NCBI RefSeq assembly: GCF_964213995.1
Contig: NW_027590121.1
Span: 806,001 to 870,000, forward strand
From: Mustelus asterias
Taxonomy: Eukaryota
Direction of reading: 5' to 3'
DNA length: 64,000 nucleotides
Shown: positions 2,755 through 62,023 of the stretch, in pieces
Layout of the letters: each line of letters starts with the position of its first letter
Position numbering within the stretch: position 1 is the first letter of the stretch
The notes under the pieces: generated by a model
What the model was told of the DNA's origin: nothing
Seen by the model: the letters and a program-made list of their open reading frames with translations, nothing else
Databases searched by the model: none
Translations under genes and position numbers: made by a program

Positions 2755-3456
2755 TTAATTGTGAATTTGCTGGTGTCTCAGCAGGTTGGATGTCTGAGTA
2801 AATCCCATCCCACACTCAGAACACGTGAATGGTTTCTTCCCAGTGTGAACTCGCTGGTGTGTCAGCAGGTTGGATGACTGAGTGAATCTCTTCCCACAAT
2901 CATTGCAGATGAACAGTCTCTCCCCAGTGTGAACTCGCTGGTGTCTGAGCAGTGCTGATGATTGAGTGAATCTCTTCCCACACCTAGAGCAAGTGAATGG
3001 TCTCTGTCCAGTGTGAACTCGCTGGTGTGTCAGCAGGGTGGATTGGTGAGTGAATCCCTGCCCACAGTCAGAGCAGGTGAATGGCCTCTCCCCAGTGTGA
3101 ATTTGCTGGTGTGTTAGCAGCGTGGGTGACTGAGTGAATCCCATCCCACACATAGAGCAGGTGAATGGCCTCTGCCCAGTGTGTGTGCGCTGGTGTGTCA
3201 GCAGGGTGGATGACTTAATGAATCCTTTCCCGCAGTCCGAGCAGGTGAACGGCCTCTCCCTGGTGTGACCACGCTGATGAGTTTCCAGCTGGGATGGGTA
3301 ATTGAATCCCTTCCCACAGTCCTCACATTTCCACAGCTTGTCCCCATCATAACTGCATTTATGTTTTGACAGGTCAGATGATCGATTGAATCCCTGACCA
3401 CACACAGAACACGAGTAGGGTTTCTCTCCGCTGTGAACGGTGCTTTTTTCTTCCAT
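2755..3456 (-). CDS. ZF1: C2H2 zinc-finger protein, 233 aa, 7 canonical + 1 degenerate finger
   Basis: Open ORF with TGERPF linkers; splice acceptor tttcacag|g at 3566/3565 upstream of the ATG. Confidence 0.85.
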
Positions 3457-3754
3457 GTTTAAAATATGGCAATATTCAGGTTACGATAAATTAGCCGACT
3501 GTATCATTCCCTGATGTGATGTTTGGTTTCAGTTTCCCAACTGCAAATCGTCCCCTTCTAAAATCCTGTGAAATTGATTTAAAACAGAAAAAAGGGAGTG
3601 AGAGAGAACCCACAAAAGCACAAAGACAGGTTGTGAAATTGAGCTGAATGAATCTGGTCATTTGTGGGGCCGGCACCAGGAAAAAGTGACCATGAAAACT
3701 GCTGGATTCAATTGATTCACTCATGGTCCTTCAGGGAAAGAAACCTGCCAACTT

Positions 3755-7558: not shown

Positions 7559-8512
7559 TTACTGGTGAATTCTTTGGTGTCTAAGCAGGTAGGATGACTG
7601 AGTGAATCTCTTCCCACTCTCAGAGCAGCTGAATGGTCTCTCCCCAGCATGAGCTCGCTTGTGTCTCAGCAGACTGGAGGACTGAATGAATCCCTTCCCA
7701 TATTCAGAGCAGGTGAATGGCCTTTCCCCAGTGTGGGTGCGCTGGTGTAGAATGAGATCATATGATCGCCTGAACCCAGTCCCACAGTGAGAGCACCTGA
7801 ACGGTCTCTCATCAGTGTGAACACGTTGATGGGGCATCAGTTCACCAGAACTTTTATAGCACTTCACACAGTCAGAGCATTTAAAAGGTCTCTCCCCATT
7901 GTGAATACGCTGGTGTATCAATAGTTGGGATGACCGAGTGAATCCTTTTCCACACTCGGAGCAGGTGAATGGCCTCTCCCCAGTGTGAATTCGCTGGTGT
8001 ACAGTAAGGTTATGTGAATGCTGGAACCCAATTCCACAGTGAGAGCACCTGAACGGTCTCTCATCAGTGTGAACACGTTGATGGGACATCAGTCCCCAAG
8101 AACTTTTGAAGCACTTCCCACAGTCTGAGCATTTAAAAGGTCTCTCATCAGTGTGAACACGTTGATGGGACATCAGTTCCCAAGAACTTTTGAAGCACTT
8201 CCCACAGTCTGAGCATTTAAAAGGTCTCTCATCAGTGTGAACTCGCTGATGAGTAAGTAGGTTGGATGACTGAGTGAATCTCTTCCCACACTCAGAGCAG
8301 GTGAACGGTCTCTCCCCAGTGTGACTGCGCCGATGAGTTTCCAGCTGGGATGGGTAATTAAATTCCTTCCCACAGTCCACACATTTCCACAGTTTTTCCA
8401 TGGAGTGGCTGCACTTATGTTTTGCCAGACCAGAGGATCGGCTGAAGCCTCGTCCACACACAGAACCCGTGTACGGTTTCTCTCCACTGTGAACGGTGCT
8501 TTTTCCTTCCAT
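7559..8512 (-). CDS. ZF2: C2H2 zinc-finger protein, 317 aa, 11 fingers (8 canonical)
   Basis: Open ORF; first and last two fingers lack a Cys; internal 84-bp duplication. Confidence 0.8.
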
Positions 8513-15287: not shown

Positions 15288-16493
15288 TCACTGGTGAACT
15301 CGCTGGTGTCTCACCAGGTTGTATGACTGGGTGAATCTCTTTCCACACTTTGAACAAGTGAACGGCTTCTCCTCACTGTGAACTTGTTGGTGCCTCAGCA
15401 GAATGGATGACCGGGTGAATCCTTTCCCACACTCAGTACAGGTGAACGATCTCTCCTCAGAGTGATTTCGCTGGTGTGCGAGCAGAAGTTTTCTGCTTTT
15501 AAAGCTCTTCTCACAGTCAGAACATCTGAACGGTCTCTCATTTGTGTGAACAAGTTGGTGTGAAGTGAGAGAGGATAAACAAGTGAATCCCTTCCCACAC
15601 ACAGGGCAGGTGAACGGCCTCTCCCCAGTGTGAATTCGCTGGTGTACAGTGAGGTCGCCTGATCGCCTGAAGCCAGTCCCGCAGTGAGAGCACATGAATG
15701 GTCTGTCGTCAGAGTGAACACGTTGATGGTGACGCAGTTCCTCAGAACTTTTATAGCCCTTCCCGCAGTCTGGACATTTAAACGGTCTCTCTTCACTGTG
15801 AACTCGTTGGTGTTTCTGCAGGTTGGATGATCGGTTAAATCCCTTCCCACATTCAGAGCAGGTGAATGGCCTCTCTCCAGTGTGAATGCGCTCATGTGCC
15901 ACAAGGTGGAATGATGTCCTGAACCCTTTCTGGCAGTGGGAGCAGCTGAACGGTGTGGAACCGGTGTGAATGTACTGGTGCTCCCGCAGTGTGCGTGGAG
16001 TTTTAAAACTCTTTCCACACTCAGTGCATTTAAACTCTCTCCTGTCGGTGTGAACTCGCTGGTGTCTCTGCAGGGCAGAGAAATCTGTGAATCCCTTCCC
16101 ACACACGGAGCAGGTGAATGTCCTCTCCCCTGTGTGAATGTGCCAATGCATCAGCAGGGCCGATGACTGAGTAAATCCTTTTCCACATTCGGAGCAGGTG
16201 AACTGCCTGTCCCTGCTGTGAATGCGCTGGTGTATCAACAGGCCAGCTGACTGAGTGAATCCCTTCCCACACACAGGGCAGCTAAAAGGTCTCTCTCCAC
16301 TGTGAGTGCGTCGGTGATTTTCCAGGTCAACTGGGTAATTGAATCCTTTCCCACAGTCTCCACATTTATACGGTCTCTCCCTGATGTGACTGCGCTTGTG
16401 TCTTGACAGGCCAGACGATCGTTTGAAGCCTTGTCCACACACAGAACATGTGTATGGTTTCTCCCCACTGTGAATGGTGCTTTTTTCTTCCAT
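15288..16493 (-). CDS. ZF3: C2H2 zinc-finger protein, ~401 aa, 14 canonical fingers
   Basis: Open ORF from [10 protein letters not shown] (same ATG as ZF1/ZF2); acceptor near 16600; the longer 508-aa ORF runs into intron sequence. Confidence 0.9.
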
Positions 16494-17859
16494 GTTTAAT
16501 GGCCTATGATATTTCGATCCTGATGAATCGAGGCACTCTGTCTGATCTTGATGTGATCCTTGATTTACAATTGTCTGTAATTCCTCACCTTCTAATCCCC
16601 TGAAAAATGAATTGAAAACAGAAAGAGGGAAACATAAGAGACAAGCCATTATAACACAAAGGCAAGATGTGAAATTGAGCTGAATGAATCTGGTAAATTG
16701 TGGGATTGGGAATAGGAAAAAAGATATGAAAGCTGCTGGATTGTCATAAAGCTTCAAACTGTTCACCAGTGCACTGAGGGAAAGGAACCCTTCACCCTTC
16801 AGAGCCCACAACAAAAATCCAGCCTTTCTGTGTGAAGAGGAAGAGGTCAGGGAGGAGGGTGATGGAAAGAGATTTTATACATCAGCAACTCAACCAGCAT
16901 TTTGGCAGAATCTCCTCAGCCCACAATCTTCCCCACCTGGAAGTACCAGAGCAGCTGGGACATGGGAAAACCACACAACTCCCTGACTTGGACAAATATC
17001 ACTGTCCCTTCAACGTGACTGGGTTAAAATCCTAATACTGTTGCATTGTGGGAGCACCTTTACTATATGGACTGCAGAGGTTTAAGAAAAAGGCCAACTA
17101 TCACCATCACAAAGGATAACTGGTGATTGGTAACATATCACTGTCAGTGCAGGATAGTAATTCAGGACAGTAACCTGGGCCTTGTGAGTAATGTCCACAT
17201 CCTAAGAAGTTTTATTTTTTTGCAAATCTATATGAAACTTGCAATGAAACAAAACCCACGACCACTACAATCTACAAGGACAGTGGACAGATGGGAAACC
17301 ACCATTTGGAATTCCCCCTCCAAGCCACTCACCATCCTGATTTGGAAATATGTCGCTTTCCTTCACTGTCATTGGATCAAAATCTTGGAATTCCCTCCCT
17401 AACAGCACTGTAGGTGTACCTACCACATGGATTGCAGCGATTCAAGAAGGCAGCTCACCAACAACTTTTCAAGGACAATTAGGGATGGGAAATAAGTGCT
17501 GGTCTAATCAATGACACCCACCTCCATTGAATGATTTTGAGAAATGACCTGGAATATCCACAAGAATACAATCCTGACAATTACTCAGTGAAATACTTCA
17601 CTCAGTCACACCATTTTCTGAGTTTACATTTGACTGGAGCTCTTGGATTCCGCTGTAATTGCTGCTGCTTGTGGAAGACTTTGGGACATTTACAATTCTC
17701 CACCAATTACCACTCCCTTTCTTTCTGATGGATAATGAAAGATCTATGCATAGATTTCAGTATAACTTGGTTCCTCTTTTAATTAATTTATCGAACCCGC
17801 CCCCGTCCCCCAATCTACACACAATAGTAAAAACATCACGAGCTACTAATAATGACTTT

Positions 17860-18360
17860 CAATGGCAGAGTCCTGACCCAGCATTCCCCGCGGTGCTGAA
17901 TGTCCCCTATTCACACCAGAGGCAGGCACCGCACAGGCGCATTAACCCCCCATATTGGAGCGTGCGCACTGTCAGTAATGGCGATGAGGTTGGGCTGTTT
18001 TTGCCTCTTTGCAGCGGGAAAGAAAGAGAAAACTCTGATGGAGCGGGCTCTGGATAGGGAAAGTTTCTAAACAATTGGTGAGTGCCTCAAACCGCGATTA
18101 AGACTCTGCCGCTCCCGTGTTTGCAGCTCTGGGTCTTTTCCTCTCCGAGGCCCAAGCCCAGGCTGACGGCCGCCATCTTGGTTCCACGAGGAGCGCATGC
18201 GGCAGGGTATTCTTGACGCAACAGTATGGGGGCGGGGCTAAGGTTATTCTCTTCCCACTGGGTCCTAGTGTCCGATACAGCCACCAGAGTATGAGTTTGT
18301 TCAACATTTTCACCCACTCTCAAGCTGCAGCTGATGTTTTGCAGCCGCGAGGAGTCCATG
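17860..18360. promoter_or_regulatory. CpG-island bidirectional promoter between ZF3(-) and ZF4(+)
   Basis: YY1 ccgccatctt 18170, NRF1-like gcgcatgcg 18194, GC box ggggcgggg ~18229, candidate donor g|gtgagt ~18078. Confidence 0.65.
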
Positions 18361-18429
18361 AACCATGTTTATATTCAGTGTGAGAGGTTGCAGACCTTGA
18401 AGGAGCTGCCTCTCCACTTTTAATTTTAA

Positions 18430-19650: not shown

Positions 19651-21135
19651 ATGGAGAAACCATGGAACAAAGAACAAAGAAAACTACAGCACAGGAACAG
19701 GCCCTTCGGCCCTCCAAGCCTGCACCAACAATGCTGCCCAACTAAACTAAAACCCCCTACCCTTCCGGGGACCATATCCCTCTATTCCCATCCTATTCAT
19801 GTATTTGTCCAGATGCCCCTTAAAACTCACTATCATATCTGCTTCCACTACCTCCCCCGGCATCGAGTTCCAGGCACCCACCACCCTCTGTGTAAAAAAA
19901 CTTGAAAATGTGGTGACTGTGGGAAGGGATTCAATTATCCATCTCTGCTGGAAATGCATCGCCGCGGTCACATTGGGGAGAGACCATTCACCTGCTCTGT
20001 GTGCAGGAAGGGATTCATTCAATCATCCCACCTGCTGACCCACCAGCAAGTTCACATTGAAGAGAGGTGTTGACAGTGATAACAATTCTAAAAGCTCTGA
20101 GGACCTGTGAAGCACCAGGTCATTCACATTGTGAGACAGTTCAGTTGCTCGCATTGTGGGAAGCTATTTAAACAATCACAGAACCTCACTGAACACGAAC
20201 ACACTCACACTGGGGAGAGGCTGTTCACCTGCTCTGTGTGAGGGAACGGATTCACATGATCATCCCACCTCGCTACACACCGACTGGTTCGCATTTATAA
20301 CAGACCTTTCAAATGTACGGAATGTGAGAAGCGTTATAAAACCACAAGTGATCTGCTGATACACCAGTGAGTTCACAATGAGGAGAGGCCATTCAGATGT
20401 AAAGTGTGTGGGAAGGAATTCACTCTGTTATCCAGCCTCCAGAAACATCAGCGAGTTCACACTGGGGAGAGGTCGTTCACCTGCTCCTTGTGTGGAAAAG
20501 GATTCATTTATTTAACCAGCCTCAGATCACACCAACTCGTTCACTTGGATAAGAAACCTTTCAAATGTTCCGAATGTGAGAAGAGTTATAAAACCACAAG
20601 TGATCTGCTGATACACCAGCGAGTTCACAATGAGGAGAGGCCATTCAGATGTACAGTGTGTGGGAAGGGATTCACTCTGTTATCCAGCCTCCAGAAACAC
20701 CGTGAGTTCACACTGGGCAGAGGTCATTCACCTGTTCCTTGTGTGGAAAAGGATTCATTTATTTAACCAGCCTCAGATCACACCAACTCGTTCACTTGGA
20801 TAAGAAACCTTTCAAATGTTCTGAATGTGAGAAGAGCTTTAAGACCTCCAGTATTCTGCTGAGACACCAACAAGTTCAGACCAGGGAGAGACTGTTCACC
20901 TGCTCCAACTGTGCAAAGGGATTCACTCGCTCATCCAACCTGCGAACACACCAGCACATTCACACCGGGGAGAAATAGTACACTTGCTCTGAATACGGGA
21001 AGGGATTTTCTCACTCATTCCACCTGCTGAGACACCAACACACTCATAATGGAGAGAGACCGTTCACCTTCTCTGAGTATGAGATGGATTCACTCAGTCA
21101 ACCCACCATCTTACCCACCAGAAAGTTGACAAGTG
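19651..21135 (+). pseudogene. ZF4: C2H2 zinc-finger pseudogene
   Basis: MEKPW interrupted by a CR1 3' insertion; several stops and frameshifts; 252-bp three-finger duplication. Confidence 0.85.
19668..19903 (-). mobile_element. HER1/CR1 3'-end fragment inside the ZF4 first finger
   Basis: FFTQRVVGAWNS.. RT C-terminus and (aacaaag)n tail. Confidence 0.85.
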
Positions 21136-26938: not shown

Positions 26939-27640
26939 TCACTTGTGAACTCGCTGGTGTTTCAGCAGCTGAGATGAATCAATGAATCCCTTCCCACACT
27001 CGGAGCAGGTGAACGGCCTCTCCCCGGTGTGAACTCGTTCATGTCTCAGCAGTTGGCATGAATCAGTGAATCCCTTCCCACACATGGAGCAGGTGAATGG
27101 CCTCTCCCCAGTGTGAGCTCGCTGGTGGACAGTGAGACTGCCTGAGTGTCTGAAGCTCTTTCCACAGTCAGTGCAGCTGAATGGCCTCTCCCCAGTGTGA
27201 ACTCGCTGGTGTTTCAGCAGGGTAGATGAAAGCCTAAAGCTCATTCCACAGTCAGTGCAGCTGAATGGTTTCTCCCCCGAGTGAACTCGCTGGTGTGCCA
27301 CTAGGTTAGAGGAATTAATGAATCCCTTCCCACACACGGAGCAGGTGAATGGCCTCTCCCCAGTGTGAACCCGCCGGTGTAACGCTAGATTGTATGACTG
27401 AATGAATCTTTTCCCACACAGAGGGCAGCTAAACGGCCTCTCCCCAGTGTGAACTCACTGATGTAATGCTAGGTTGGATGACTGAGTGAAATCCTTCCCA
27501 CATATGGAGCAGGTGAAGGGTCTCTCCCCAGTGTGGGTGCGTCGATGTGTTTCCAGTTTGGATGGGCAAGTGAATGCTTTCCCACAGTCCCCACATATCC
27601 ACGGTTTCTCTGTAGTGTCGGTGTCATCATGTCTCTCCAT
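26939..27640 (-). pseudogene. ZF5: 8-finger C2H2 gene with a single nonsense codon
   Basis: [16 protein letters not shown].. stays in frame throughout except HQ*VH (TGA at 27455-27457). Confidence 0.85.
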
Positions 27641-28439
27641 GTTGATGATCAGTTGAAGCTTCGTCCACACACACAACACGTGTATAGTTTCTCCTCACTG
27701 TGAATGGTGATGTTTTTTCAGGCTGTGTAACTGGTTAAAGCTCTTTCCACAGTCAGTTCACTGGAACACTCTCACTCGGGTGTGCGTGTGTCTTGGTGCT
27801 TTTCCAGTCACACTGATGTTTGAAATCTTTTCCCACAGACAAAACAAACAAACATTTCTCCTTCCACTTTCCAAGTACGATGATATCCAGGTCCTATGAA
27901 TCGAGTGATTCTGTCAGATCTTCATGTGATGTCTGGTTTGAGATTCCCGACTGCAATCCTCAACTTCTAATAGCTGTAAAAACCATCAATAAAAGTCATC
28001 ACTGACAGTCCAGGATAGAAATTCTGAACAGACAATTCTAGTTTCTCTGGAACTTTTTCCTCTCGAACCCCCAAAGTTGCAGATCCCCATCCCACACACT
28101 CTCCCTCCTCCCTGAACTGAAATCCAAATAAATTGACAGATAATTATTTCAGTTTCCTCTTAAAAAATGTGTACAACTAGAGATGGTATTTTTGATGATT
28201 CACTTCATTCATAACACATGAGAAAACATTAATCTGAATCACCCTGACCCGATGAGTCAGAATAGCAGATGTTAACTTTGTGTCCAGAACTGACTGTTTC
28301 GAGATTTGATGAGAAATTGTGAAGGGGGTTTCTCTAAACCGCCCTCTCTAACTAAGTTAAACCTGGTTTCAGTCTCAGGGCCCATTCTGCTTTCTGGTTC
28401 TCTTCCTGCTGACTAATTAACCTCAATTAAATATCAAGA

Positions 28440-29403: not shown

Positions 29404-29616
29404 ACTTGTGTGAAGTGCACTGGGATGATTTATGATGTTATAAATAGAAGTTGCTGTTGGCTATAATTCTGACCTCCTGTTTTACAACAACCCACTGATT
29501 TCACAACAAACTCTATCTCTGATGTTTTGTTTGTTGAGGATTATCCATTTGGTTTTGCCCTTAATAAAGATGGCCGATGTTAACGTCTGAGGATTTTGCC
29601 TCGCAAATTGAGGGAT

Positions 29617-29915
29617 TAAAGTTTAATTATTAGTGTCACAAGTAGGTTTACATTAACACTGCAATGAAGTTACTGTGAGAATCCCCTAGTCGCCACACTC
29701 CGGCAGCTGTTCGGGTACACCGAGGGAAAATTTAGCACGGCCAATGCACCCGAACCAGCACGTCTTTCAGACTGTGGGAGGAAACCGGAGCACCCGGAGG
29801 AAACCCACGCAGACACGGGGAGAATGTGCAGACTCCACACAGACACTGACCCAGGCTGGGAATTGAACCCGGCTCCCTGGCGCTGTGAAGCAGCAGTGTT
29901 AACCACTGTGTCACC
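29617..29915 (-). mobile_element. HE1/V-SINE (tail type 2)
   Basis: Match to other copies. Confidence 0.85.
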
Positions 29916-29929
29916 CTGACCCGAGATCC

Positions 29930-30830
29930 GGCACCTGACCGACACCGGGTGTTTATGAAGCCTCACCGCCCGGATCCATTTATGTTTCCGGTTTTCTTTC
30001 GGGCTCTGGATCCGCGCCATTTAAAATTCCCATTGAAAACCCGCCGGCTCGAGCTCCTTCCCGCCTGCGGATCCACAAAGTGTTTCCAAATCCTCCCAGC
30101 CACCGCCTAACGCTGACTCCGCTTCTCCGGGACAAACAAGCGCCAAGGACAGCAATGACACTGCGCATGCACCACATCACAATGCCCGGGGACTGATTGA
30201 CGGCAGCTCCGGACCAATAGGAAGAGGGGGCGGGACTGGAGGACCGAGCGGGGGCGGCTGGTCCTCCAACCAATCGGAGTAAATGAGAGGCGGGTCCAGG
30301 CTGGGAGTGGAGCATGCGCAAAGATGATCAGGCGCCGGGGAGCCTGGGAACGCACTGCGCAGGTGTGGTGAGCACAGTAAGAAGTCACAACACCAGGTGA
30401 AAGTCCAACAGGTTTATTTGGAATCAGGAGCTTTCGGAGCGCCGCCCCTTCATCAGGTGACTCACCCAGTCCAACACCGGCACCTCCACATCAGGTGGTG
30501 TGGGTGCACGGTCTGAGCATGCTCAGTGTCAGTCATGGTGTTGGGCAGGGTTCGGGAGGAGATTGTGAGCACAGGGTGGGAATGGAAACCACGGCTGCAC
30601 TGGAAACAGCACCAACTTCTGGCCCAGGTTTTACCGTGGGGACAGGCCCGAGGAGAGCGCTGAGCTGGTGGCTGGACATTGGGGAGGATTTGGAAACACT
30701 TTGTGGATCCGCAAACCCTTCAGAATCATTGTCAGCTCCCTGGTTTGCAGCTGCGGGGCTTCTCCCTCCCTCCCTCCCGGGAACAGGCCCAGGTTAACGG
30801 CCCCATCCTGGCTCAGCCACTGGAGGATGG
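29930..30830. promoter_or_regulatory. CpG-island bidirectional promoter / first exons between ZF5(-) and ZF6(+)
   Basis: NRF1 tgcgcatgc 30162 and ~30313; CCAAT ~30214 and ~30270; GC box; paralogous to 44593-44910; Penelope fragment at ~30372-30492. Confidence 0.7.
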
Positions 30831-31390: not shown

Positions 31391-32374
31391 ACAGAGGAGA
31401 GGGAGGGAGAAAACTGGGAGTGGAGGAAAGAGTTCAGCATTTCTATTGTGGACTGACACTGATAGATGTTTGAAAACTGCTTTTACACACGGTTACAAGT
31501 CGACGAATTTCACACAACCCCAAATCACACAATCTCTCTGTGATTTCTATTCTGCATTGACTGTGATGTTTTTTGTAAACAGAGATGACAGCTTTCAGGA
31601 AAGATTAAATGGATTGAAGTTTTTTCCTGTAGAGCAGTGACCTGATAAAAGTCTTTAAAATTATTCGTGGCTTGGACAGGGGAAATGTGGGGAGAATGTT
31701 CCACTTGTGACAGAGTCTAAAAGAAGGAACGATCAATAAACAAAGAGTCATAAATACAAGATTGTTACTAATAAATCCAAGAAGGCAATAAGGACAAATT
31801 TCTTCACTCACAGGTTTAGAAACACCATAGAAATGAGTTGAGGAAAGTGCTGAGATTGTTTCAAAAGGAAACGGGAGAAGCACACGAGAGAAAAAGAAAT
31901 AGAAAAATCAACTGAAAGGCTGAGATGAGGTCTATGGGACAGGAGAAGATGTGTCAAGTATAAAGAATTAAACTGAATGGCTTGTTTGTGTCTTGTATAT
32001 TCAAAGTAATTCAATGTAAACTCCTTTTCCAGAATATCTGCAGACGGGCGATTCAAACCAATCATCTCAGGATCTGACAGTGTCACATGGTTCTTCAGGA
32101 TCTGAATATCAAAGGCCCATGAATGTGGAAGGAGAAACGTTTGCCTATTTTGTCTTTGGGAAATTATTCAACATCAGTGTGACTGGAAAAGCCCCGAGAC
32201 ACAGACATCTCAGTTATTTTTCCACAGTCAGCTGGAACGGAGCTTTAACCAGTCACACAGCGTGAAAAGAAATAGCACATTTACATCAGGTAGACACCGT
32301 ACTCGTGTTCTTTGTGTGGACCTGGTTTCAACTGATTATATAACCTAGAGAGACAGGAGGACACCTGCACCATG

Positions 32375-32499
32375 TGAACAAGGAGCAGCAATAGGCCATT
32401 CGGCCCCACGGGCCAGTTCCGCCATTTAATAACATCATGGCTGATCTGATAGTGAACTCAAATCTGCATCCCGCCTACACCCGATAGCCTGTCAATAAT
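32375..32499 (-). mobile_element. CR1 3'-end fragment inserted at the ZF6 start codon
   Basis: TSD catg at 32371-32374 and 32500-32503. Confidence 0.8.
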
Positions 32500-32500
32500 C

Positions 32501-33568
32501 ATGGAGAAACCGTGGAAATGTGCGGACTGTGGGACAGGATTCAATTACCCATCTGAATTGGAAACCCATCGACGTATTCACACTGGGGAGAGACCATTCA
32601 CCTGCTGTGTGTGTGGGAAGGGATTCACTCAGTCATCCAGCCTGTACACACACCAGCATGTCCATACTGGTGAGAGGCCATTCACCTGTCTTCAATGTGG
32701 GAAGGGATTTAATGCTTTATCAAACCTCCGGACTCACCACCAGGTTCACTCTGATCAGAGACCGTTTAAATGTTGTGAGTGTGGGAAGAGCTTTAAAAGC
32801 AGAAAAGATTTGTTGATTCACCAACGCACTCACACTGGGGAGAGGCCATTCATCTGCAACATGTGTGGTAAGGGATTCACTCAGTCATCCCACCTCCTGA
32901 CACACCAAACTGTTCACACTGATCAGAGACCATTTAAATGTTCTGATTGCGAGAAGAACTTTAAAAGTACAAAGGATTTACTGATTCACCAACGCACTCA
33001 CAGTGGAGAGAGGCCGTTCATCTGCTCCGTGTGTGGGAAGGGATTCACTTGTTCATCCCAGCTCCTGAAACATCGATTTGTTCACACTGATCAGAGACCT
33101 ATCAATTGTCCTGAATGTGAGAAAACATTTAAAAGCAAAAAGGATCTTCTGAAACACCAGCACACTCACACTGGGGAGAGGCCGTTCACCTGCTCTCTCT
33201 GTGGGAAGGGATTCACTCGGTTACCTCACCTTCTGAGACACCATCGAGTTCACACTGGGGAGAGGCCGTTCACCTGCCCTGTGTGTTGTCAGGAATTCAT
33301 TGATACATCCGACCTTCTGATACACCGGCGAGTTCACACTGGAGAGAGACCTTACACTTGCCTCCTGTGCGGCAAGAGATTCACTCAGTCATCCCACCTG
33401 ACTACACACCAACTTGTTCACACTGATCAGAGACCTTTTGAATGTTCTGATTGTGAGAAGAGATTTAAAAGTAAACAGAATCTGCTGAAACACCAGCGAG
33501 TTCACACTGGGGAAAGGCCGTTCAACTGCTCCATGTGTGGGAAGGGATTCGCTCAAACAACCTGCTGA
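32501..33568 (+). CDS. ZF6: C2H2 zinc-finger protein, 355 aa, 12 intact fingers, 13th broken by a small deletion
   Basis: Open ORF from MEKPWKC; alternating TGERP/TDQRP fingers. Confidence 0.85.
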   Translation: MEKPWKCADCGTGFNYPSELETHRRIHTGERPFTCCVCGKGFTQSSSLYTHQHVHTGERPFTCLQCGKGFNALSNLRTHHQVHSDQRPFKCCECGKSFKSRKDLLIHQRTHTGERPFICNMCGKGFTQSSHLLTHQTVHTDQRPFKCSDCEKNFKSTKDLLIHQRTHSGERPFICSVCGKGFTCSSQLLKHRFVHTDQRPINCPECEKTFKSKKDLLKHQHTHTGERPFTCSLCGKGFTRLPHLLRHHRVHTGERPFTCPVCCQEFIDTSDLLIHRRVHTGERPYTCLLCGKRFTQSSHLTTHQLVHTDQRPFECSDCEKRFKSKQNLLKHQRVHTGERPFNCSMCGKGFAQTTC

Positions 33569-35170: not shown

Positions 35171-36799
35171 TGTTTATAAAATGCTTCATAAAACGTTCTG
35201 CAGAAGGATCATTTAGATCCAAAAGATTAACTCTGTTTCTCCCCACAGATGCTGCCAGACCTGCTGAGGTTACCCAGCATAGTTTGTTTATATTTATAAA
35301 ATGCTAGTTAGAGCAAGCTGGAGTACTGAGCTCTGTTCTCGTTACCAGATTAATCAGTTATAAAAGTATATGTCTAGTAAAGCTGTGTGGCAGAAAGCTG
35401 AAGCCAGTTGGCGATTTTTTAATATAATTACAATCTGTTCAATTTTCAAATCTAGTGAATAAAGGATTGAAGGATTGGGAGGGTTCGTGGAGGAATCATT
35501 TCACCCGGAGAGTGATGGGGATCTGGAACTCACTGCCTGAAAGGACGGGAGAGGCAGAAACCCTCATCACATTAAACAGGAACTCAGATACACAGCTGAG
35601 ATTCTGTAACACACAGAGGGACAGATCAAGAGCTGGAAAGTAGGGTGAAACTGGACAGTAGTTTCCCAGCCAGCACAGACCTGATGGGCTGAATGGCCTC
35701 CTGCTGTTCAGTGAATTTTCTATATTTCAGTTCTGACAGTTGGAGTTTGTTTCTGCTGATGTTAACTCCTCGAACTGGGCTGTAGTGTAATATTCTGGAT
35801 AAATGTGAAATCAGCTTGATTAAAACATCAGAGTAGATTTTTTGTCTTTCCCACCTGTGTTACCTGATTGTATTCTGATTTTCTTATCAGTAACACAACT
35901 AACCTCAGCCGCCCCAATCTGCGAATGACTTAGTAAATCCCTTCCCTAACAGCACTGCGAGTGTCCCTCAAACCACAGGGACTGCAGCGGTTCAGGAAGG
36001 CAGCTCACCACCACCTCAAGGGCAATAAGGAATAGGCAATAAAAATACTGGTCCAGCCAGTGACACCCACACCCCGTGAAAAGAAAATGTCTGTTCAAAC
36101 AAGACTTAATTAAGGCAGGACAGGATTCTTTGGATAATAAATTTTACAACATTAAATTAACATTAAAATTATTTTTAAAGGAAAGAGATTTGCATATCAA
36201 TTCAGGAAAACTTCCAAGATGGTGCTGGAGTGAGGCGACTTCTTGCAAGCTGCGCCCAGCATACCCTCTAATTCTATCTTCTACTCGTTCGATGCTTCTA
36301 AAACTTTATTCTAACTCTTATGACTGCAACACTACATTCTGCATCCTCTCCTTCTCTATGTATGGTACTCTTTGTATAGCACACAAGGAACAATGCTTTT
36401 CACTGTATGCTAATACATGTGACAATAATAAATCAAATCAAATCAGACAATGATTTTTGCAACTTTATCGAGGTGTTGATCCATCACAGCGTTCCCCTCT
36501 CAAGACTCTTGTCTCAGATACAGTCCCACTTGCTGAGATGTACATGTGATTCTTGCCTCGAGTGAGTGTCTTCAGTAATCAGCCAGCCACAAATCATTAC
36601 GGAGCCCTGACTTTTCACCCCTGAGTGGCCAGCTCCCTGTGTCAGAGTCAAGCTTTCCCTCAGTGAATAATTACCTCAAGCTGCTGCTCGGGTTAATCCA
36701 ATTAGTTCTTAGGCACAGTGGCCACCCAACCTCAGTACATCAGACAAGAATACAAAAGAGCTAAAATCTCTTGACTTTCAAGTACTTCGCTATCCACTA

Positions 36800-39014: not shown

Positions 39015-39605
39015 ATGGAGAAACCGTGGAAATGTGTGGACTGTGGGAAGGGATTCCGTTACCCATCCAAACTGGAAATCCATCGTCGTAGTCACACTGG
39101 GGAGAGACCATTCTCCTGCTCTGAGTGTGAGAAGGGGTTCGTTAGGTCCTCCCACTTGCTGACACACCAGCAAATTCACACTGGGAAGAGACAATTCACC
39201 TGCACCGAATGTGGGAAGGGATTCACTCAGTCATCCAAACTGCTGTCACACCAGCGAGTTCACACTGGGGAGAGACCATTCACCTGCTCCGAATGTGGGA
39301 AAGGATTCACTGCTTCATCTTACCTGCTGACACATCAACGTGTTCACACTGATGAGAGACCTTTTAAATGCTCAGACTGTGGGAAGTGCTTTAAAAGATC
39401 TGGTGTACTGATGCGCCATCAATGTGCTCTCACTGACGAGAGGCCATTCAGATGCATACACTGTGGGACTGGATTCAGACAATCATATAACCTCACTGTA
39501 CATCAGCGAATTCACACTGGGGAGAGGCCATTCACCTGCTCTGATTGTGGCAAGGGATTCTCTCAGTCATCCAACCTTCTGAAACACCAACGAATCCACA
39601 ATTAA
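39015..39605 (+). CDS. ZF7: C2H2 zinc-finger protein, 196 aa, 7 fingers (one lacking the second His)
   Basis: Open ORF from MEKPWKC; finger types and 3' flank are closest to ZF2. Confidence 0.8.
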
Positions 39606-43232: not shown

Positions 43233-44150
43233 TTAGTGTGAGTGCATTGGTGAGCCAGCAGGTTGAAAAACGTTGTGAACCCCACGCACGGAGCAAGTAA
43301 ACGGCCTCTGCCCAGTGTGAACTCGCTGGTGAGCAGTGAGGTTGGATGACCGATTGAATCCTTTCCCACACACAGAGCAGATGAATGGCCTCTCTCCAGT
43401 GTGAACTCGCTGGTGTAAAACAAGATTGGATGACTGCCTGAAACTCTTTCCACAGTCAGTGCAGCTGAATGGCTTCTCCTCAGTGTGAATTCGTTGGTGC
43501 CTCAGCAGGGTGGGTAAAACTGTGAATCCCTTCCCACACATGGAACAAGTAAATGGTCTCTCCCCAGTGTGAATCCGTTGGTGTGCAACGAGAGAGGTTG
43601 CCTGTCTGAAACTCTTTCCACAGGAAGTGCAGCTGAATGGCTTTTGAGTGTGAATCCGCTGGTGTGACAGCAGGTGGGATGACCCAGTGAATCCCTCCCC
43701 ACACATGGAGCAGGTGAAAGGCCTCTCCCCAGTGTGAACTCGCTGGTGTAATGTGAAGTTGGATGACTGAGTGAATCTCTTTCCACACTCAGGGCAGGTG
43801 AACAGTCCCTCCCCAGTGTGAGTGCGTTGGTGTGCCGTGTGTGCTGAAGAATGCCTGAACCTCTTTCCACAGGGAGTGCAGCTGAATGGCTTCTCCTCGG
43901 TGTGAATTCGCTGGTGTGACAAAAGGCCAGATAACTGAGTGAAAGCCTTCCCACACACAGAGCAGGTGAATGCCCTCTTCCCCGTGTGAACTCGCTGGTG
44001 TAATGATAGGTTGGATGACTGAGTGAATCCTTTCCCACATATAGAACAGGTGAATGGCCTCTCCCCAGTGTGACTGCGTTGATGGTTTTCCAGCAGGGAT
44101 GGATAATTGAATCCTTTCCCACAATCTTCACATTTCCACCGTTTCTCCAT
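43233..44150 (-). CDS. ZF8: C2H2 zinc-finger protein, 10 intact fingers; last two fingers (to 43154) lost by frameshift
   Basis: ORF from MEKRWKC; ~5-nt deletion at ~43280 between ggg microhomologies. Confidence 0.75.
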
Positions 44151-44584
44151 GGTACCGGTATCCGTGTGTCTCTCGAGGTTGGACAATCAGTTCAAGTCTT
44201 GTCCAAACATTGAACAAATGTATGGTTTTTCCTCACCTTGTATTTTGCAATGTTTTCTCAAGCTGAATAACTGGTTAAAGCTCTTTCCACAGTCAGTTCA
44301 CTGGAACACTCACTCGGGTGTGTGTGTCTCGGTGCTTTTCCAGTCACTGATGTTTGAAATCATAGAAACCCTACAGTGCAGAAGGAGGCCATTCGGCCCA
44401 TCGAGTCTGCACCGACCACAACCCCACCCAGGCCCTACCTGTTCTTTTAGAACAGTTGATCATTTATCCTTCCACATTCAAAGACCGATGATATTCAGAT
44501 CCTGATGGATGGAGTTACTCAACCAGAGCTTGATCTGACGTTTCACATCTGCAAATCCTTCGCTTCTGATCTCCTGTAGAAACA

Positions 44585-45200
44585 GTTCACAAACTCCGCT
44601 TCTCCGGGACAAACAAGCGCCAAGGCCAGCAATGACACTGCGCATGCTCCACATCACAACGCCCGGGGACTGATTGACGGCAGGTGCGGGCCAATAGGAA
44701 GAGGGGGCGGGGCTGGAGGACGGAGCGGGAGCGGCTGGTCCTCCAACCAATTAGAGTGAATGGGGGGGCGGCCAGGTCGGGAGTGGAGCATGCGCGGCAA
44801 TGGTAAGGCGGTTGTGAGCCTGGCAACGCAGCGTGCGGTCTGAGCATGCTCAGTGTCAGTCATAGTGTCGGGGAGGGTGAGGAATGGAAACCACGGCTGC
44901 GCTGGAAACGGCCTCGGGCCCCGCCTTCCCCGCGGGGACAAGCCCAAGGGCGGCGGGCTCGCGAGCTGCCATCTTACGAGTGTGAATGAGGGCGCTCAGA
45001 GAGGCGGAGCTTCCTCCCCGGTAATGGGCCTGGGTTACCTAGGCAACTATCTTGGGAGACGAAGTGGGTCTGGTTCAGCTGTCCTGCAAGGGTGGCCATC
45101 TTGGTGAGGGTATAGGGAGTGGGCGGAGCTTCTCCCCGTTGCAAGGTGCGGGTTTCCCAGGCAACCGGCCGCGGCCATCTTGGAGCGGGACAGAGACTGG
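44585..45200. promoter_or_regulatory. CpG-island bidirectional promoter between ZF8(-) and ZF9(+)
   Basis: Paralog of 30116-30610; NRF1, CCAAT and GC boxes; three gccatctt YY1 cores. Confidence 0.7.
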
Positions 45201-45632: not shown

Positions 45633-46900
45633 ATGAAGAAACCATGGAAATGTGGGGACTGTGAGAAGGGATTCAATTATCCATCCCGCCTGGAAATCCA
45701 TCAGCACAGTCACACTGGGAACAGCATCACAGAGAGACCGCGGAAATGTGAGGATTGTGGTGAAGGATTCTATTATCCATGTCTGCTGGAAGTCCATTGA
45801 CACAGTCACGCTGGGGAGAAGCTATTCACCTCTTGTGTGTGGAAAAGGATTTATTACGGCAGCGAGCCTCATGTCACACCTGCAAATTCACACTGAGGAA
45901 AGACCGTATGGCTGCACATACTGTGAAAGGAGGTTTAAACAGTCATCTACCCTCACTGCACATCAGCAAATTCACACTGGGATGAGACCATTCAGCTTCT
46001 CCGTGGAAAGAGATTCACCCAGTCCTCCATCCTGTTAATATACCAACCACTCACACGAGGGAGAAGCAATTCATCTGCTCCATATGTGAGAAAGGATTTA
46101 CTCAGTCATCTGGCCTTTGGTCACACCACAGAGTTCACACTGAGGAGAGGCCATACCCTTGCTCTGTCTGTGGGAAGGAATTTACTCAGTTATCTCACCC
46201 TGCTAACATACCAGAGAAATCACACTGGGAAGAAGCCACACAGCTGCACTTCCTGTGGGAAGAGCTTCAGGTCTTCATCCAACCTCAGTACACAGAAGCG
46301 TGTTCACACTGGGGAGAAATCATTCACCTGCTCCGAGTGTGGGATGGAATTCACTCAGTCAGCCAACCTGGAAATACACAAGAGAATTCACACTGAGGAG
46401 AAACCATTCAGCTGCACCTCCTGTGGAAAGAGTTTCAGGCAGTTATCCACACTCACTGAACACCAATGCACTCACACTGGGGAGAGGCCATTCACCTGCG
46501 CTGTGTGGGGGAAGGGATTCACTCAGTCAGCCAGCCTCATGTTAAACCAGCAAGTTCACACTGAGGAGAGTCTGTTCAACTGCACTCACTATAGAAAGAA
46601 ATTCAGGCAGTCTTCCGCGCTCACTGCACACCAGCGAATTCACATTGGGGAAAAATCATTCAACTGCTCCGTATGTGGGAAGCGCTTCACTCGATCATCT
46701 GGGCTTTGGTCACACCAGCGAGTTCGCACTGGGGAGAAGCCATTCGGCTGAACTCATTGTGAAAAGAGTTTCAGATCTTCATCTGATCTGAACGTACAAA
46801 GCGAGTTCACACTGGGGAGAGGTTGTTTACCTGCTGTGTGTGTGGAAAGGGTTTCACTCGGTCAGCCAATCTGCAGACACACCAGAGCGTTCACAAGTGA
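45633..46900 (+). pseudogene. ZF9: C2H2 zinc-finger pseudogene
   Basis: Duplicated first finger, TGA at 45798, multiple frameshifts. Confidence 0.85.
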
Positions 46901-47740: not shown

Positions 47741-49922
47741 TTGCAGACCTACCTCAGTTGATCTTTCTCTACACCCTAGCTATGACTGTATCATGACATT
47801 CTGCACTCTCTCCTTCCCAATGTACAGTATGCTTTGTCTGTATAGCGCACAAGAAACAATATTTTTCACTGTATACTAATACATGTGACAATAATAAATC
47901 AAACAGACCCCACAGAGAAACTAACTTTATAACAATCAGGATAGAATTAAACACACTGGTATGTTGGGATGCCCTGTGGTTGTGAAAGGCTCTGTAGAAA
48001 TGTAAGTTTATAAATTGAAGATTTCTGTTCTCTGATCTTGTTATCTGGAACTGAATTGATTTCAGCCACCCCCAACTTGCCATTTATTAAATTCACTTTG
48101 GTTCAGACAAGACTTTAACCAATTAAGACAAAGGCAGAATTCTCTGGATAGTAAATTTAAAAAGTTTATTCAATGAAAAAGGTTCACTGAACCACTTTAA
48201 GACATTGGCTTTTATAACTTGATGTGGGTGATCAGTCTGGAAGGTTAACCCTCTCTGGCTCCTTCTTTGACAGGAATTTCCTTAAAACTCAGCCTCGGGA
48301 CTCTTCAGTATTTGGTTCACAGGGAAGACCTTTGGAACCTCTACTTTTATCCCCCTACATCAGAGTTGGGCCTGTTTAACATGCCAATTGGTCAATTTGA
48401 TGAGATTAATTCAATTGAATCCCCAATATTTACACCACCGTTTCCCTTCATCTTAGTCAGGAATACAACATAATTGTTTCAGACTATCCCTTTACCCGAT
48501 TCCATACAATCCCTTGTTCATACAGTTTCAAATATTGAAGAGTTTGAAGGTCCCTCTCGCCAGTACATTTATCTTCATTGCACATTCTTTACATACACAG
48601 CAATAAACTTTTACATTTTTACAGTAAATAAAACCCAGCCTTTTACTATAACTACTGATTCATTAATTGTAACTTAATACAATCATCTGTTACTGACTGG
48701 TAGCTAATTAATACAGGATTCTTTAATTCATTTGGTTAATACAAGATTCACTGGTTCAAAAAGACACACGATGGAAGACAATAGGTTTCTTTCTTATTCA
48801 CCTTGATCAGACTGAACAATCGACCTTATTCTTGAGCCAGATTTGATGGAATATAATGTCCTGTATCTTATCAAAATGACAGAAGAAATTCTTAGTTTAA
48901 ACAATTTCTGCTGGTTATGCAGTTTCCACAAGCATTTGGGTGAATACAGCATTCATTTTAAAAATAAAGCTTCATTCACATGTCAGAGTTTAAGATTGTT
49001 TCCTTGACCTTGTTACTTAGAATGTTCAAGGAACAATTCAGCACAGTAACAGGCACTTGGGCCCACCGAGCCTGTGCCAATAGAGCTTCAATCCCTCTGT
49101 TCACCTCCTGTCTGTCTATCAAGATACACCTTGAACATTGCTAAAGTGCCTGCTTCCACCCGCTTCACAGGCAGTGCATTCCAGGCACCCAGCACCTCTA
49201 CAGAGTCATAGAGGTTAACAGCATGGAAACAGGCCCTTTGGCTCAACTTGTCCATGCCACCCCTTTTTTTAAATGACTAAGCGAGTCCGAATTGCCCGCA
49301 TTTAGCCCATATCCCTCAATAGCAATCTTACTCGGAACTGTCTAAATGTTTATCAAAAGACAAAATTGTACCCGCCTCTACTACTACCTCTGGCAGCTTG
49401 TTTCAGACACTCGCCACCCTTTGTGTGAAAAAATTGCCCCTCTGGACCCTTTTGTATCTCTCCCCTCTCACCTTAAACCTATGGCCTCTAGTTTTAGACT
49501 TCCCTACCTTTGGGAATAGATATTGGCTATCTAGCTGATCTATACCCCTCATTATTTTATAGACTTCTATAGGATCACCCGTAAGCCTCCTATGCTCCAG
49601 AGAAAAAAGTCCCAGTCTATCCAGCCTCTCCTTATAACTCAAACCATCAAGTCCTGGTAGCATCCTAATAAATCTTTTCTGCATTCTTTCCAGCTTAGTA
49701 ATATCCTTTCTATAATAGGGTGACCAGAACTGTATACGGTATTACAAGTGTGGCCTTAACAATGTCTTGTGCAACTTCAACAAGACGTCCCAACTCCTGT
49801 ATTCAATGTTCTGACCAATGAAACCAAGCATGCCGAATGCCTTCTTCACCGCTCTGTCCATCTGTGACTCCACTTTCAATGTATACTGGTATACATTGTA
49901 AGACTGTATTCAATGTAATACT

Positions 49923-50004
49923 GGTAGCGTGGCTGAGCGGTCTAAAGCACTAGATTTAAGCTTCAGTCTTTCCGGAGGCATAGGTTCAAATCCCACTACT
50001 ACCA
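49923..50004 (+). pseudogene. tRNA-Leu pseudogene (Leu-TAG-like body, anticodon reads TAA)
   Basis: 82 nt GGTAGCGTGG..CTACCA; many transitions versus the vertebrate Leu-TAG/AAG consensus. Confidence 0.85.
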
Positions 50005-50022
50005 GAATTGATGTCTGTTTAA

Positions 50023-50093
50023 GCATTGGTGGTTCAGTGGTAGAATTCTCGCCTGCCACGCGGGAGGCCCGGGTTCTATTCCCGGCAAATGCA
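50023..50093 (+). tRNA. tRNA-Gly(GCC), probably non-functional copy
   Basis: Matches the vertebrate Gly-GCC sequence as I recall it except B-box GTTCT and one acceptor-stem mismatch; T5 terminator at 50104. Confidence 0.8.
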
Positions 50094-53658: not shown

Positions 53659-54612
53659 TCAATTGTGAACTCGCTGGTGTCTCAGCAGGGTAGATGACTG
53701 AGTGAATTCTTTCCCACAGTCAGAGCAGGCGAATGGTCTCTCCCCAGTGTGGACTCGCTGGTGTCTTCTCAGGTTGGACAAATCTCGGAACTGCTTCCCA
53801 CAATCAGAGCAGGGAAATGGTCTCTCCCCAGTGTGGACTCGCTGGTGTTTTTGCAGAGTGGATGAATCTTTGAATTTCTTCGCACACACTGTGCAGATGA
53901 ACGGCCTCTCCTCAGTGTGAATTCGGTGGTGTGTCAGCAGATGGGTTGAATTTTTGAATCCCTTCCCACAGTCAGAACAGATGAATGACCTCTCCTCGGT
54001 GTGAACCTGTCGGTGTCGTATCAGGTTGGATAACCATCTAAACCTTCTTGCGCAGTGAGAGCAGCTGAATTGTTTCTGCTCAGTGTGAACTCGCTGGTGT
54101 GTCTGCAGGTTGGATGACTGACTGAATCCCTTCCCACACTGAGAGCAGGTAAATGGCCTCTCCCCAGTGTGAGCTCGCTGGTGTGTCAGCAGATCGGAGA
54201 ACTGATTGAATCTCTTCCCACACTCAGAGCAGCTGAATGGCCTCTCCCCAGTGTGAATTCGCTGGTGTGTCAGCAGGTTGGATAACTGAGTGAATCCCTT
54301 CCCACACTCAGAGCAAACAAATGGCCTCTCCCCAGAGTGAACTCGCTGATGTATCTTCAGGGTGGATGAATGTTTGAAACCTTTCCCACATGCAGTGCAG
54401 ATGAATGGCCTTTCCTTAGTGTGAATTCGCTGGTGTGTCAGCAGGTGGGATGAATTTGTGAATCCCTTCCCACAATCAGAGCAGGTAAACGGCCGCTCCC
54501 CAGTGTGAATGCGTCGGTGAGTTTCTAGTTTTGAGGGGGTTATGAATCTCTTTCCGCAGTCCTCACATTTCCATGGTTTCTCCGTGGTGCAGGTGTCCTT
54601 GTGTCTCTCCAT
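53659..54612 (-). CDS. ZF10: C2H2 zinc-finger protein, 317 aa, 11 canonical fingers
   Basis: Open ORF from MERHKDTCTTEKPWKC. Confidence 0.9.
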   Translation of the reverse strand: MERHKDTCTTEKPWKCEDCGKRFITPSKLETHRRIHTGERPFTCSDCGKGFTNSSHLLTHQRIHTKERPFICTACGKGFKHSSTLKIHQRVHSGERPFVCSECGKGFTQLSNLLTHQRIHTGERPFSCSECGKRFNQFSDLLTHQRAHTGERPFTCSQCGKGFSQSSNLQTHQRVHTEQKQFSCSHCARRFRWLSNLIRHRQVHTEERSFICSDCGKGFKNSTHLLTHHRIHTEERPFICTVCAKKFKDSSTLQKHQRVHTGERPFPCSDCGKQFRDLSNLRRHQRVHTGERPFACSDCGKEFTQSSTLLRHQRVHN

Positions 54613-58020: not shown

Positions 58021-58978
58021 ATGGAAGAAAAAAGCACCATTCACAGTGGAGAGAAAATGTACACGTGTTCTTTGTGTGGAGAATCATCTGGCCTTGAGGA
58101 ACATAGTTGCAGTCACAACAGGGAAATAGCATGTGAGGATTGTGGGAAGGAATTCAATTACCCATCCCTGCTGGAAATTCATCGACGTAGTCACACTGGG
58201 GAGAGGCCATTCACCTGTTCCCAGTGTGGGAAGGGATTCACTCAGTTATCCAGCTTTCATATACACCAGAGGACTCATGCTGAGGAGAGGCCATTCACCT
58301 GCTCCCAATGTGGGAAAGGATTCAATTAGTCATCCAACCTCGCAACACACCAGCAAGTTCAACACTGGGGAGAAACCGTTCACCTGCTCTGAATGTGGGA
58401 TGGGATTCGCTCACTCATCCACTCTGTTGATACACCAGTGAACTCACACTCAGGAGAAGCCATTCACTTGCTCCCAGTGTGGGAAGGGATTTGCTGACTT
58501 AACCAATTTGTTGAAACACCAGCAAGTTCACACTGGGGAGAGGCCATTCACCTGTTCCCAGTGTGGAAAGGGATTTGTTCAGTCAGCCACTTTGTTCACA
58601 CACCAGCGAATTCACACTGGGGAAAGGCCATTCACCTGTTCTGTGTGTGGGAAAGGATTCAGTCGGTCATCAACTCTCCTGAGACACCAGCGAGTTCACA
58701 CTGGGGAGAAACCATTCATCTGCTCTGTGTGCGGGAAAGGATTCAATCACTCATCCAACCTAGCAATACACCAGCGAATCCACACAGAGGAGAAGGCATT
58801 CATCTGTTCTGTGTGTGGGAAAGGATTCAATCAGTCATCTAAACTAGCAATACATCAGCAGGTTCACAATGTGGAGAGGCCATTCACCTGCTTGCAGTGT
58901 GGGAAGGCATATGTTACCTCATTGAATCTTCTGACGCACCAGCGAATTCACAACTATTGTGATTGGATTTCAAATTAG
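58021..58978 (+). pseudogene. ZF11: C2H2 zinc-finger pseudogene
   Basis: TAG at 58327, +1 frameshift ~58361, TGA at 58439. Confidence 0.85.
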
Positions 58979-61067: not shown

Positions 61068-62023
61068 GTTACTTGTGAACTCGCTGGTGTGTCTACAGAG
61101 TGGATGACTGAGTGAATCCCTTCCCACATGTGGAGCAGATGAAAGGTCTCTCCCCAGTGTGAACTCGCTGGTGTAACCGCAGGTTGGATGAGCGAGCAAA
61201 ACCTTTCCCACAAACGGAGCAAATGAATGGCCTCTCCCCAGTGTGAACTCTCTGGTGTTTCAGCAGATTGGCTGAATGAGCAAATCCCTTCCCACACTGG
61301 GAGCAGGTGAACGGTCTCTCCCCGGTGTGCCCTTCCTTGTGTATTGCTAGGTTGGATGACTGATTGAATCCCTTCCCACATACAGAGCAGGTGTATGGTC
61401 TTTCCCCAGTGTGAATTCGCTGGTGCGTCCGCAATGTGTGAGAGTGAGCAAATCCCTTCCCACACTGGGAGCAGGTGAACGGCCTCTCCCCAGTGTGAAC
61501 AGTCTGGTGTGTCAGCAAATTTGATGACCGACTGAATCCCTTCCCACATTGGGAGCAGTTGAACGGCTTCTCCTCAGTGTGAATTTGCTTGTGCAATGCA
61601 AGGTTGGATGACTGAGTGAATCCCTTCCCACACACAGAGCAGGTGAACGGTCTCTCTCCAGTGTGCATTCGCTGATGTTTCAGCAGATTGGATGAGTGAG
61701 CAAATCGCTTCCCGCACTGGGAGCAGGTGAATGGTCTCTCCCCAGTGTGAATTCACTGGTGTTTTACTAGGGTGGATGGGTGAGCAAAACCCTTCCCACA
61801 CTGGGAGCAGGTGAATGGCCTCTCCCCAGTGTGACTGCGTCGATGAGTTTCCAGCAGGGATGGGTAATCGAATTCCTTCCCACAGTCTCTACATTTCCAT
61901 GCCATCTCCCTGTTGTGACTGCAATTGTGCTCCGAAAGGCCAGATGATTGGTTGAAGTCTTGTCCACACAGAGAACATATATGTATAGTTTCTCTCCACT
62001 GTGAACGGTGCTATTTTTTCCAT
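61068..62023 (-). pseudogene. ZF12: C2H2 zinc-finger pseudogene, inverted paralog of ZF11
   Basis: 5' frameshifts, TGA at 61753-61755, TAG at 61093-61095. Confidence 0.85.

Follow-up and report, generated by a model that had tools for sequence, protein, structure and literature searches.

Organization of the locus

The window, that is, the whole stretch of 64,000 nucleotides of Mustelus asterias DNA analysed here, was enumerated in six frames for C2H2 zinc-finger arrays, and 12 were found, ZF1 to ZF12 (Table 1). One finger per array, at or near its front, has Pro at helix position +1 and Glu at +5; ZF9 has two. Here, we will call this the lead finger. A preliminary description of this DNA had a finger of the type W-K-C-x-D-C...P(+1)...E(+5) fronting every paralog and ZF9 carrying it twice. 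The six-frame scan found it in 12/12 arrays and confirmed the two lead-type copies in ZF9, and the sequences and coordinates quoted, including the ATG and lead finger of ZF6, were correct. P+1 and E+5 are present in 13/13 copies. The Trp of that consensus holds in 9 of the 12 leading copies, the exceptions being ZF3 (Tyr), ZF4 (stop codon), and ZF11 (deletion). Half of the genes (6/12: ZF1, ZF2, ZF3, ZF6, ZF7, and ZF10) passed the intactness filter.

Table 1. Zinc-finger features of the window, numbered from its first nucleotide
Feature	Position	Strand	Remarks
ZF1 lead finger	3265..3333	-	Met 41 codons upstream; one pre-finger, partly decayed
ZF2 lead finger	8321..8389	-	Six-frame scan
ZF3 lead finger, Tyr variant	16302..16370	-	Finger no. 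2 of an intact 14-finger gene
ZF4 lead finger	19903..19971	+	Pseudogene; insertion, then stop at the Trp codon
ZF5 lead finger	27533..27601	-	Next finger holds a stop
ZF5/ZF6 intergenic CpG-rich region, putative divergent promoter	29600..30735	.	Candidate non-coding first exons
ZF6 leader, likely 5' UTR	32033..32500	+	Predicted splice acceptor, first exon base 32033; decayed "ghost" fingers
ZF6 likely start codon	32501..32503	+	A at -3, G at +4; gives M-E-K-P-W-K-C
ZF6 coding region	32501..33568	+	355 aa; 12 complete fingers, ends within the 13th
ZF6 lead (W/P/E) finger WKCADCGTGFNYPSELETHRRIH	32513..32581	+	Six-frame scan
ZF7 lead finger	39027..39095	+	Six-frame scan
ZF8 lead finger	44070..44138	-	Frameshift close to gene end
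ZF9 tandem pair of lead-type fingers	45645..45809	+	Pseudogene
ZF10 lead finger	54505..54573	-	Met 13 codons upstream; intact 11-finger gene
ZF11 lead finger, Trp deleted	58126..58194	+	Downstream stops and frameshift
ZF12 lead finger	61831..61899	-	Next finger holds a stop

The leader of ZF6 contains TGA codons at 32180–32182 and 32333–32335, which are common family-wide, and an insertion of approximately 125 nt (about 32375–32499, +) that abuts the start codon. At this insertion CATG is duplicated, and a minimal upstream ORF (ATG-TGA) is left behind. The open frame of ZF6 is 370 aa here versus 393–397 aa in most near-identical copies elsewhere.

Head-to-head gene pairs have CpG-rich promoter cassettes in common (29600–30735, 44400–45200, 55500–56260, and 17800–18400). 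These contain GCGCATGCGC-like and AAGATGGCGGC motifs, presumably NRF1-like and YY1-like, respectively; one cassette had 51 matches within the fetched loci. An ORF in the region between ZF5 and ZF6 had no Pfam match.

Other elements are interspersed with the arrays. An immunoglobulin V-set exon (758–1327, -; Pfam V-set, E 4e-12) resembles a T-cell receptor V segment and is followed by a heptamer, a 23–24 nt spacer, and a nonamer-like sequence; there is an in-frame stop after the likely acceptor, and the exon looks like a dead V orphon within the ZNF cluster. A tRNA-Leu(TAA) adjoins a tRNA-Gly(GCC) at 49922–50093 (+). ORF fragments at 5232–5930 (-), 50494–52519 (-), 59261–60167 (-), and 62700–63761 (+) resemble GIY-YIG (Penelope-type) endonuclease and CR1/L2-type LINE proteins.

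Size and composition of the family

The lead finger marks a large family. In this 3.68-Gb genome, a tight DNA pattern for the lead-finger hairpin matches 1,160 times, which sets a minimum for the number of copies, and the reversed control 0 times. Since the pattern fits only 9 of 45 untargeted lead fingers, a total of several thousand is plausible, with assembly duplicates counted in. Identical copies of the ZF6 N-terminus (35 residues) were located at 31 of the 150 places scored, and many of these have another family member approximately 17.5 kb off, which points to block duplications. The block, a ZF6 copy plus the second gene, is repeated many times with identical N-termini on G000 contigs C71, C158, C160, C187, and others, indicating either very recent segmental amplification or assembly duplication.

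For the family sample, 160 tiles were fetched, of which 40 were contiguous and untargeted, 40 were partly targeted, and 80 were centred on pattern or similarity hits; 11/160 arrays lay at tile edges and were dropped, leaving 149. The lead finger was present in 26/29 arrays of the contiguous untargeted tiles and in 14/19 of the partly targeted ones. The eight arrays without it comprise six with a decayed remnant (judged by eye), one deletion, and one apparently from another family. L012 holds, from 742 on (+), a long and intact array that lacks the lead finger and seems to belong to another ZNF family within the cluster.

Of the 149 non-edge arrays, 143 have a single lead finger and 6 have two; the copies are adjacent in five of the six, and one (L134) is internal. 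These six arrays qualify the earlier claim that this finger type never recurs inside arrays. Positional restriction, proposed at the same time as a check, was borne out, with the lead finger confined to array fronts and L134 the exception. Residue counts over the 149 arrays are W 143, K 142, D 142, P+1 138, S+2 134, E+5 130, and R+9 124, and over 39 untargeted arrays W 35, P 38, and E 34; P+1 and E+5, described as invariant, are so in the window and not outside it. The residue at -1 is mostly Tyr, Phe, Ser, or Ala, not the usual base reader. Glu+5 is no rarer a loss in intact than in broken genes (missing in 14/88 and 5/55, respectively), and Lys is often the substitute (10/149 arrays). None of the 413 downstream fingers in the first sample has Trp at the lead position, and the signature is far beyond chance; Pro+1 by itself is found in some ordinary downstream fingers (31/1,082). 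The 11-finger frame of L005 is still open although a Cys ligand is missing from its lead finger. The family is clustered, with gene birth, gene death, and diversifying base-reading residues, as in KRAB-ZFPs.

Gene structure and start codons

A recognisable splice acceptor and leader are common to all paralogues. Read from the acceptor to the finger, the frame stays open in 2 intact genes and is closed in 46, and the phases are scattered (20/16/12); this count covers 48 of 92 intact genes, the 44 without an acceptor above the score cut-off having been left out. In 60 of 88 intact single-copy genes, the furthest in-frame Met lies four codons before the Trp (M-E-K-P-W). In 19/88 it lies approximately 41 codons upstream and is followed by one translated pre-finger, which retains all four ligands in 13 of the 19; in most of the remaining genes the Met is 9 or 13 codons upstream. 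The context A..ATGG surrounds the start in 60/68, and translation likely starts at M-E-K-P-W in the main class. At the other end, the tail after the last His is a single residue in 62/88 intact genes.

Upstream of the start codon, the main class has TGA fixed at one former finger codon (35/35 matches), and the Cys-Cys-His register of the fossil fingers is kept in only 6/42 genes. The 200 nt preceding the ATG carry 2.8 indels per sequence (42 genes), against 0 in the lead-finger region. The three codon positions of the ghost finger adjoining the ATG are about equally conserved (0.77/0.72/0.73 identity, 42 genes). In the main class, then, upstream fingers decay neutrally as 5' UTR; the preliminary description had called them mostly degenerate. 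An ATG frequently precedes the fossil finger with the fixed TGA (e.g., 27784–27852, -), which could act as an upstream ORF; Glu at +5 is present in it too.

Candidate first exons show frame-breaking indels among paralogues, and one public model has an N-terminal extension whose exon-1 frame is broken in the corresponding paralogue of the window. Pfam analysis of 4/4 window ZF proteins gave only zinc-binding families, and no KRAB, among the matches listed (at most 25 each). A genome search with PF01352 (KRAB) gave 0 matches among 76 candidates, in a setting where the control genomes gave no match either. With the frame closed in all but two genes, neither a KRAB on an in-frame upstream coding exon, the arrangement of KRAB-ZFPs, nor a separate FiNZ-type upstream coding exon was found, the latter judged by frame. 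Because of the frame, start, fossil-finger, tail, and first-exon evidence, all of it read from DNA, we infer that the proteins consist of fingers only. The earlier statement that no KRAB/SCAN/BTB-like sequence is visible thus holds in the sense that this genome has no in-frame upstream effector exon.

Contigs of four presumed-RNA runs, from four other organisms, partly cover ZF10 at about 97–99% identity. One contig piece ends at the predicted ZF10 acceptor (54905); a joint to an upstream exon was not among the matches listed.

Selection on the lead finger

Selection tests were limited to intact, regularly spaced genes, 81 in one and 62 (M-E-K-P-W) in the other. For the site-class likelihood of the 62 genes, the tree was built from UTR and third positions. 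In the 81-gene test, the omega values of the 5- and 15-codon linker partitions, left unoptimised by IQ-TREE, were discarded.

The lead finger is conserved at the protein level, with a split pattern of selection. Its three codon positions show identities of 0.92/0.86/0.73, and indels are absent (42 genes). Over 81 genes, dN/dS is 0.35–0.39 in the lead finger versus 0.49–0.56 in fingers 2–4, hairpin values being biased low because 80/160 tiles were centred on hits; constraint by finger position had been put forward as a check, and the difference has the expected direction.

The two sides of the helix behave differently. In 40 independent pairs, dN/dS at -1/+3/+6 is 1.84 (bootstrap 1.35–2.59) versus 1.9–2.3 in fingers 2–4, although recombination among paralogues can push such values above 1, and at +1/+5/+8 it is 0.42 (0.24–0.61) versus 0.87–0.96, where the lead-finger class was set by a profile trained on P/E fingers and the later fingers mix subtypes. 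The 62 genes give 2.05 at -1/+3/+6 (2dL = 28 against neutrality), with 2.13 in finger 2. Single positions of the lead finger fall at 0.0 (+1), 0.20 (+2), 0.20 (+5), and 0.07 (+9), versus 1.21, 0.47, 2.53, and 1.14 in finger 2; +8 is mildly constrained (0.65). The TGERP linker has a dN/dS of 0.08 after the lead finger versus 0.42 for finger 2 (62 genes). Other finger subtypes and array positions of the same genes lack such constraint at +5 (0.9 against 2.2–2.9 bits). Departures from the signature number 18/133 in genes with a translated pre-finger versus 19/441 in those without (p = 0.0004).

The preliminary description had spoken of a constant module. P+1, E+5, R+9, and the linker are constrained (0.0–0.2); since -1, +3, and +6 evolve as fast as in finger 2, a constant module is unsupported. 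Nor would inheritance suffice, that is, a common founder whose edge units escape shuffling, which explains the origin and not the maintenance of the finger: although the family is partly young (the identical ZF6 N-termini) and its non-coding upstream region is also recognisably common, synonymous divergence in the lead finger is like that of other fingers (0.30 vs 0.31–0.41 in fingers 2–4) and third positions match neutral UTR while amino-acid change is suppressed, which contradicts the idea and leaves it hardly credible.

Structure of the lead finger

By its sequence and predicted fold, the lead finger is a classical C2H2 finger, with C-x2-C-x12-H-x3-H spacing, a beta-beta-alpha fold, and a TGE(K/R)P linker. 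An AlphaFold2 model from a 57-sequence alignment has two ordinary beta-beta-alpha fingers (mean pLDDT 85), the first helix spanning 17–28 and starting at the Pro. In an ideal helix, +1, +2, +5, +8, and +9 share one arc and +3, +6, and +10 another, so that the conserved residues would form a single exposed face, going by helical-wheel arithmetic and the usual fold of such fingers. A PDB sequence search returned generic finger proteins, and the ESM Atlas generic C2H2 clusters only. Pro+1 is present in DNA-binding fingers of ZFP568 (PDB sequence search) and is therefore compatible with DNA binding.

Taxonomic distribution and N-terminal extensions

The closest named relatives are shark proteins. 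The lead finger was found in named proteins of Scyliorhinus, Mustelus, Cetorhinus, Heterodontus, Chiloscyllium, and Hemiscyllium, and also in Heptranchias, Pristiophorus, the skate Rhinoraja, and the sawfish Pristis, 10 elasmobranch genera in all. A word-restricted protein search returned 10/10 hits, nine from named elasmobranchs and one without a name. In a sample of 4,075 fingers from 224 proteins that are non-elasmobranch or unnamed, taken from ranked lists rather than a survey, Trp occurs in 1, Pro in 27, and both in 0. The longer-protein profile search (best 120 of 7,999 matches) is dominated by long arrays and therefore is no taxon survey. Chimaera proteins were not among the protein matches listed, and ranked lists do not imply absence. 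"Shark-specific", as the finger had been called, is thus right in that one lineage holds it as far as sampled, and too narrow in that skate and sawfish have it too.

Several public gene models have doubtful N-termini or fused neighbouring genes. In long Heterodontus models, internal copies mostly follow gaps of hundreds of residues and so look like fused neighbours. Two batoid models, P0024 (skate) and P0249 (sawfish), have a common 21-residue N-terminal segment (20 identities), after which come a decayed pre-finger and the lead finger. It contains P-R-V-V-L-R-R-L, which is like PxVxL, the HP1-binding consensus described in PMC11245307. The segment was not found in this genome with that query; it is possibly the hallmark of a batoid subfamily that has an HP1-type motif or effector on an upstream exon. 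At L161 (G000:C3153, about 36150–36500, -), an acidic-repeat exon matches the N-terminal extension of the catshark model P0033, and no finger exon was found within approximately 20 kb downstream of it.

What the lead finger may do

We tentatively favour the reading that the lead finger reads DNA and presents a conserved outer face to a partner protein shared family-wide, because the motif is kept across the 10 elasmobranch genera and its constraint is unlike that of other fingers. The diversifying side would read DNA in step with the rest of the array; across from it, the conserved side would be the docking site for the common partner. Diversification at -1/+3/+6 together with a tight TGERP linker is as expected of a finger docking on DNA, and the closed frame, one-residue tail, and zinc-binding-only Pfam matches leave no other place for an effector. 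A precedent for a partner-docking finger is the fourth finger of Kipferl, which binds the Rhino chromodomain (PMC11245307). By analogy, a chromatin corepressor would be the most plausible partner, and transposons would be the targets. A wider proposal, which we regard as doubtful, is that in sharks and rays the outer face of the first DNA-reading finger became the corepressor handle of thousands of transposon-targeting proteins, the ancestral upstream fingers then being silenced into 5' UTR.

Several observations count against docking to a partner. Glu+5 departs at least as often in intact as in broken genes, Pro+1 is shared with the DNA-binding fingers of ZFP568, and the open L005 array with its broken lead finger counts against strict indispensability. 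The looser signature in genes with a translated pre-finger fits a structural role of the first position equally well, and this leads to the main rival, in our judgement a rather unlikely one: packing of Trp and Pro and salt bridges among Glu, Arg, Lys, and Asp would stabilise or nucleate folding of the first finger, and the proteins would simply bind DNA, as steric blockers or competitors, and would lack a dedicated effector. The Pro at the first helical turn of the AlphaFold2 model suits such a cap, as does the pairing of Lys(b-1) and Asp(x2) in an internal finger subtype as well (87%/85%). Canonical C2H2 fingers, however, fold without the Trp-Pro signature; of the 19 genes with a pre-finger, 16 keep the Trp and 16 the Pro; and Trp with Pro in 0/4,075 fingers elsewhere, first fingers included, argues that the first position does not generally require them. 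ZNF146/OZF, a finger-only LINE-1 binder reported to have no silencing effect in HEK293 (PMC8896011), also speaks for the cap and against docking to a partner.

It is improbable that the conserved face instead mediates homo- or heterodimerisation among family members. Ikaros-family C-terminal fingers mediate dimerisation, and one copy per protein in most arrays and a conserved outer face would suit this, but HX3H spacing, a canonical linker, and diversifying base readers are unlike the usual dedicated dimerisation fingers. We give still less weight to a fixed anchor, in which the conserved residues would contact the DNA backbone, RNA, or a histone surface and set the array end. Constraint on Lys, Arg+9, Ser+2, and the linker and the Tyr/Phe/Ser/Ala at -1 speak for it, whereas Trp, Pro, Asp, and Glu would suit nucleic acid poorly and most should lie off the DNA-facing arc.

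A missed upstream coding exon carrying the real effector is very unlikely. The near-identical batoid segments with their PxVxL-like motif and the catshark acidic extension, part of which is matched in this genome, are what one would cite for it; the closed frame, the broken exon-1 frame of the annotated model, the batoid segment missed by its query in this genome, and the lack of a finger exon near the acidic exon all weigh the other way.

Significance and comparison with known systems

Cartilaginous fishes have large ZNF repertoires, with 1,223–3,586 ZNF ORFs in chromosome-level skate, white shark, and catshark (supplement of PMC10547256), and KRAB families are reported lost in them (PMC8455134). 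Sharks are treated as lacking KRAB-ZNFs in PMC11603059 and PMC8455134. Across animals, the number of ZNFs correlates with that of retroelements (Wells et al. 2023, PMC10547256); chondrichthyan terms had no match in the main text of that paper, and the rest of its supplement could hold shark ZNF sequences or annotations. By term, sharks are not mentioned in PMC13709654 or PMC10602909, nor was anything on shark ZNFs found in PMC10380595. We found no description of the lead finger in a literature search with thin coverage of subscription papers; the expansion of shark ZNFs is already known as counts, and the lead finger itself is apparently undescribed. As a diagnostic feature, it defines the family and gives a start site for re-annotation, and mutation of Trp, Asp, Pro+1, Glu+5, and Arg+9 would make the effector question directly testable.

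There are four known systems to keep in mind. The KRAB-ZFP clusters of tetrapods and sarcopterygians are alike in clustered birth and death, a single-exon tandem array, and fast base-reading positions (PMC10547256, PMC11603059), but the shark family is without a KRAB exon and its protein begins at the finger. Human ZNF146/OZF is also finger-only, with about 10 fingers and no KRAB, and its loss brings no derepression of the LINE-1 elements that it binds (PMC8896011); it is a single conserved gene, in contrast to a shark family of thousands, and is likened here by architecture. Cyprinid FiNZ-ZNFs are lineage-restricted, number hundreds to thousands, and combine one common N-terminal feature with adaptive fingers (PMC10547256). 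That feature is a 28-aa acidic non-finger domain on its own upstream exon, whereas in sharks it is one face of a true C2H2 finger; knockdown of FiNZ-ZNFs derepresses young TEs (PMC10547256), and a role in TE silencing is proposed for the shark family by analogy. In Drosophila Kipferl, one finger of a DNA-binding array serves to recruit a chromatin protein (PMC11245307). Kipferl is one gene with a ZAD domain and an established partner, and the likeness to the shark lead finger would be one of function.
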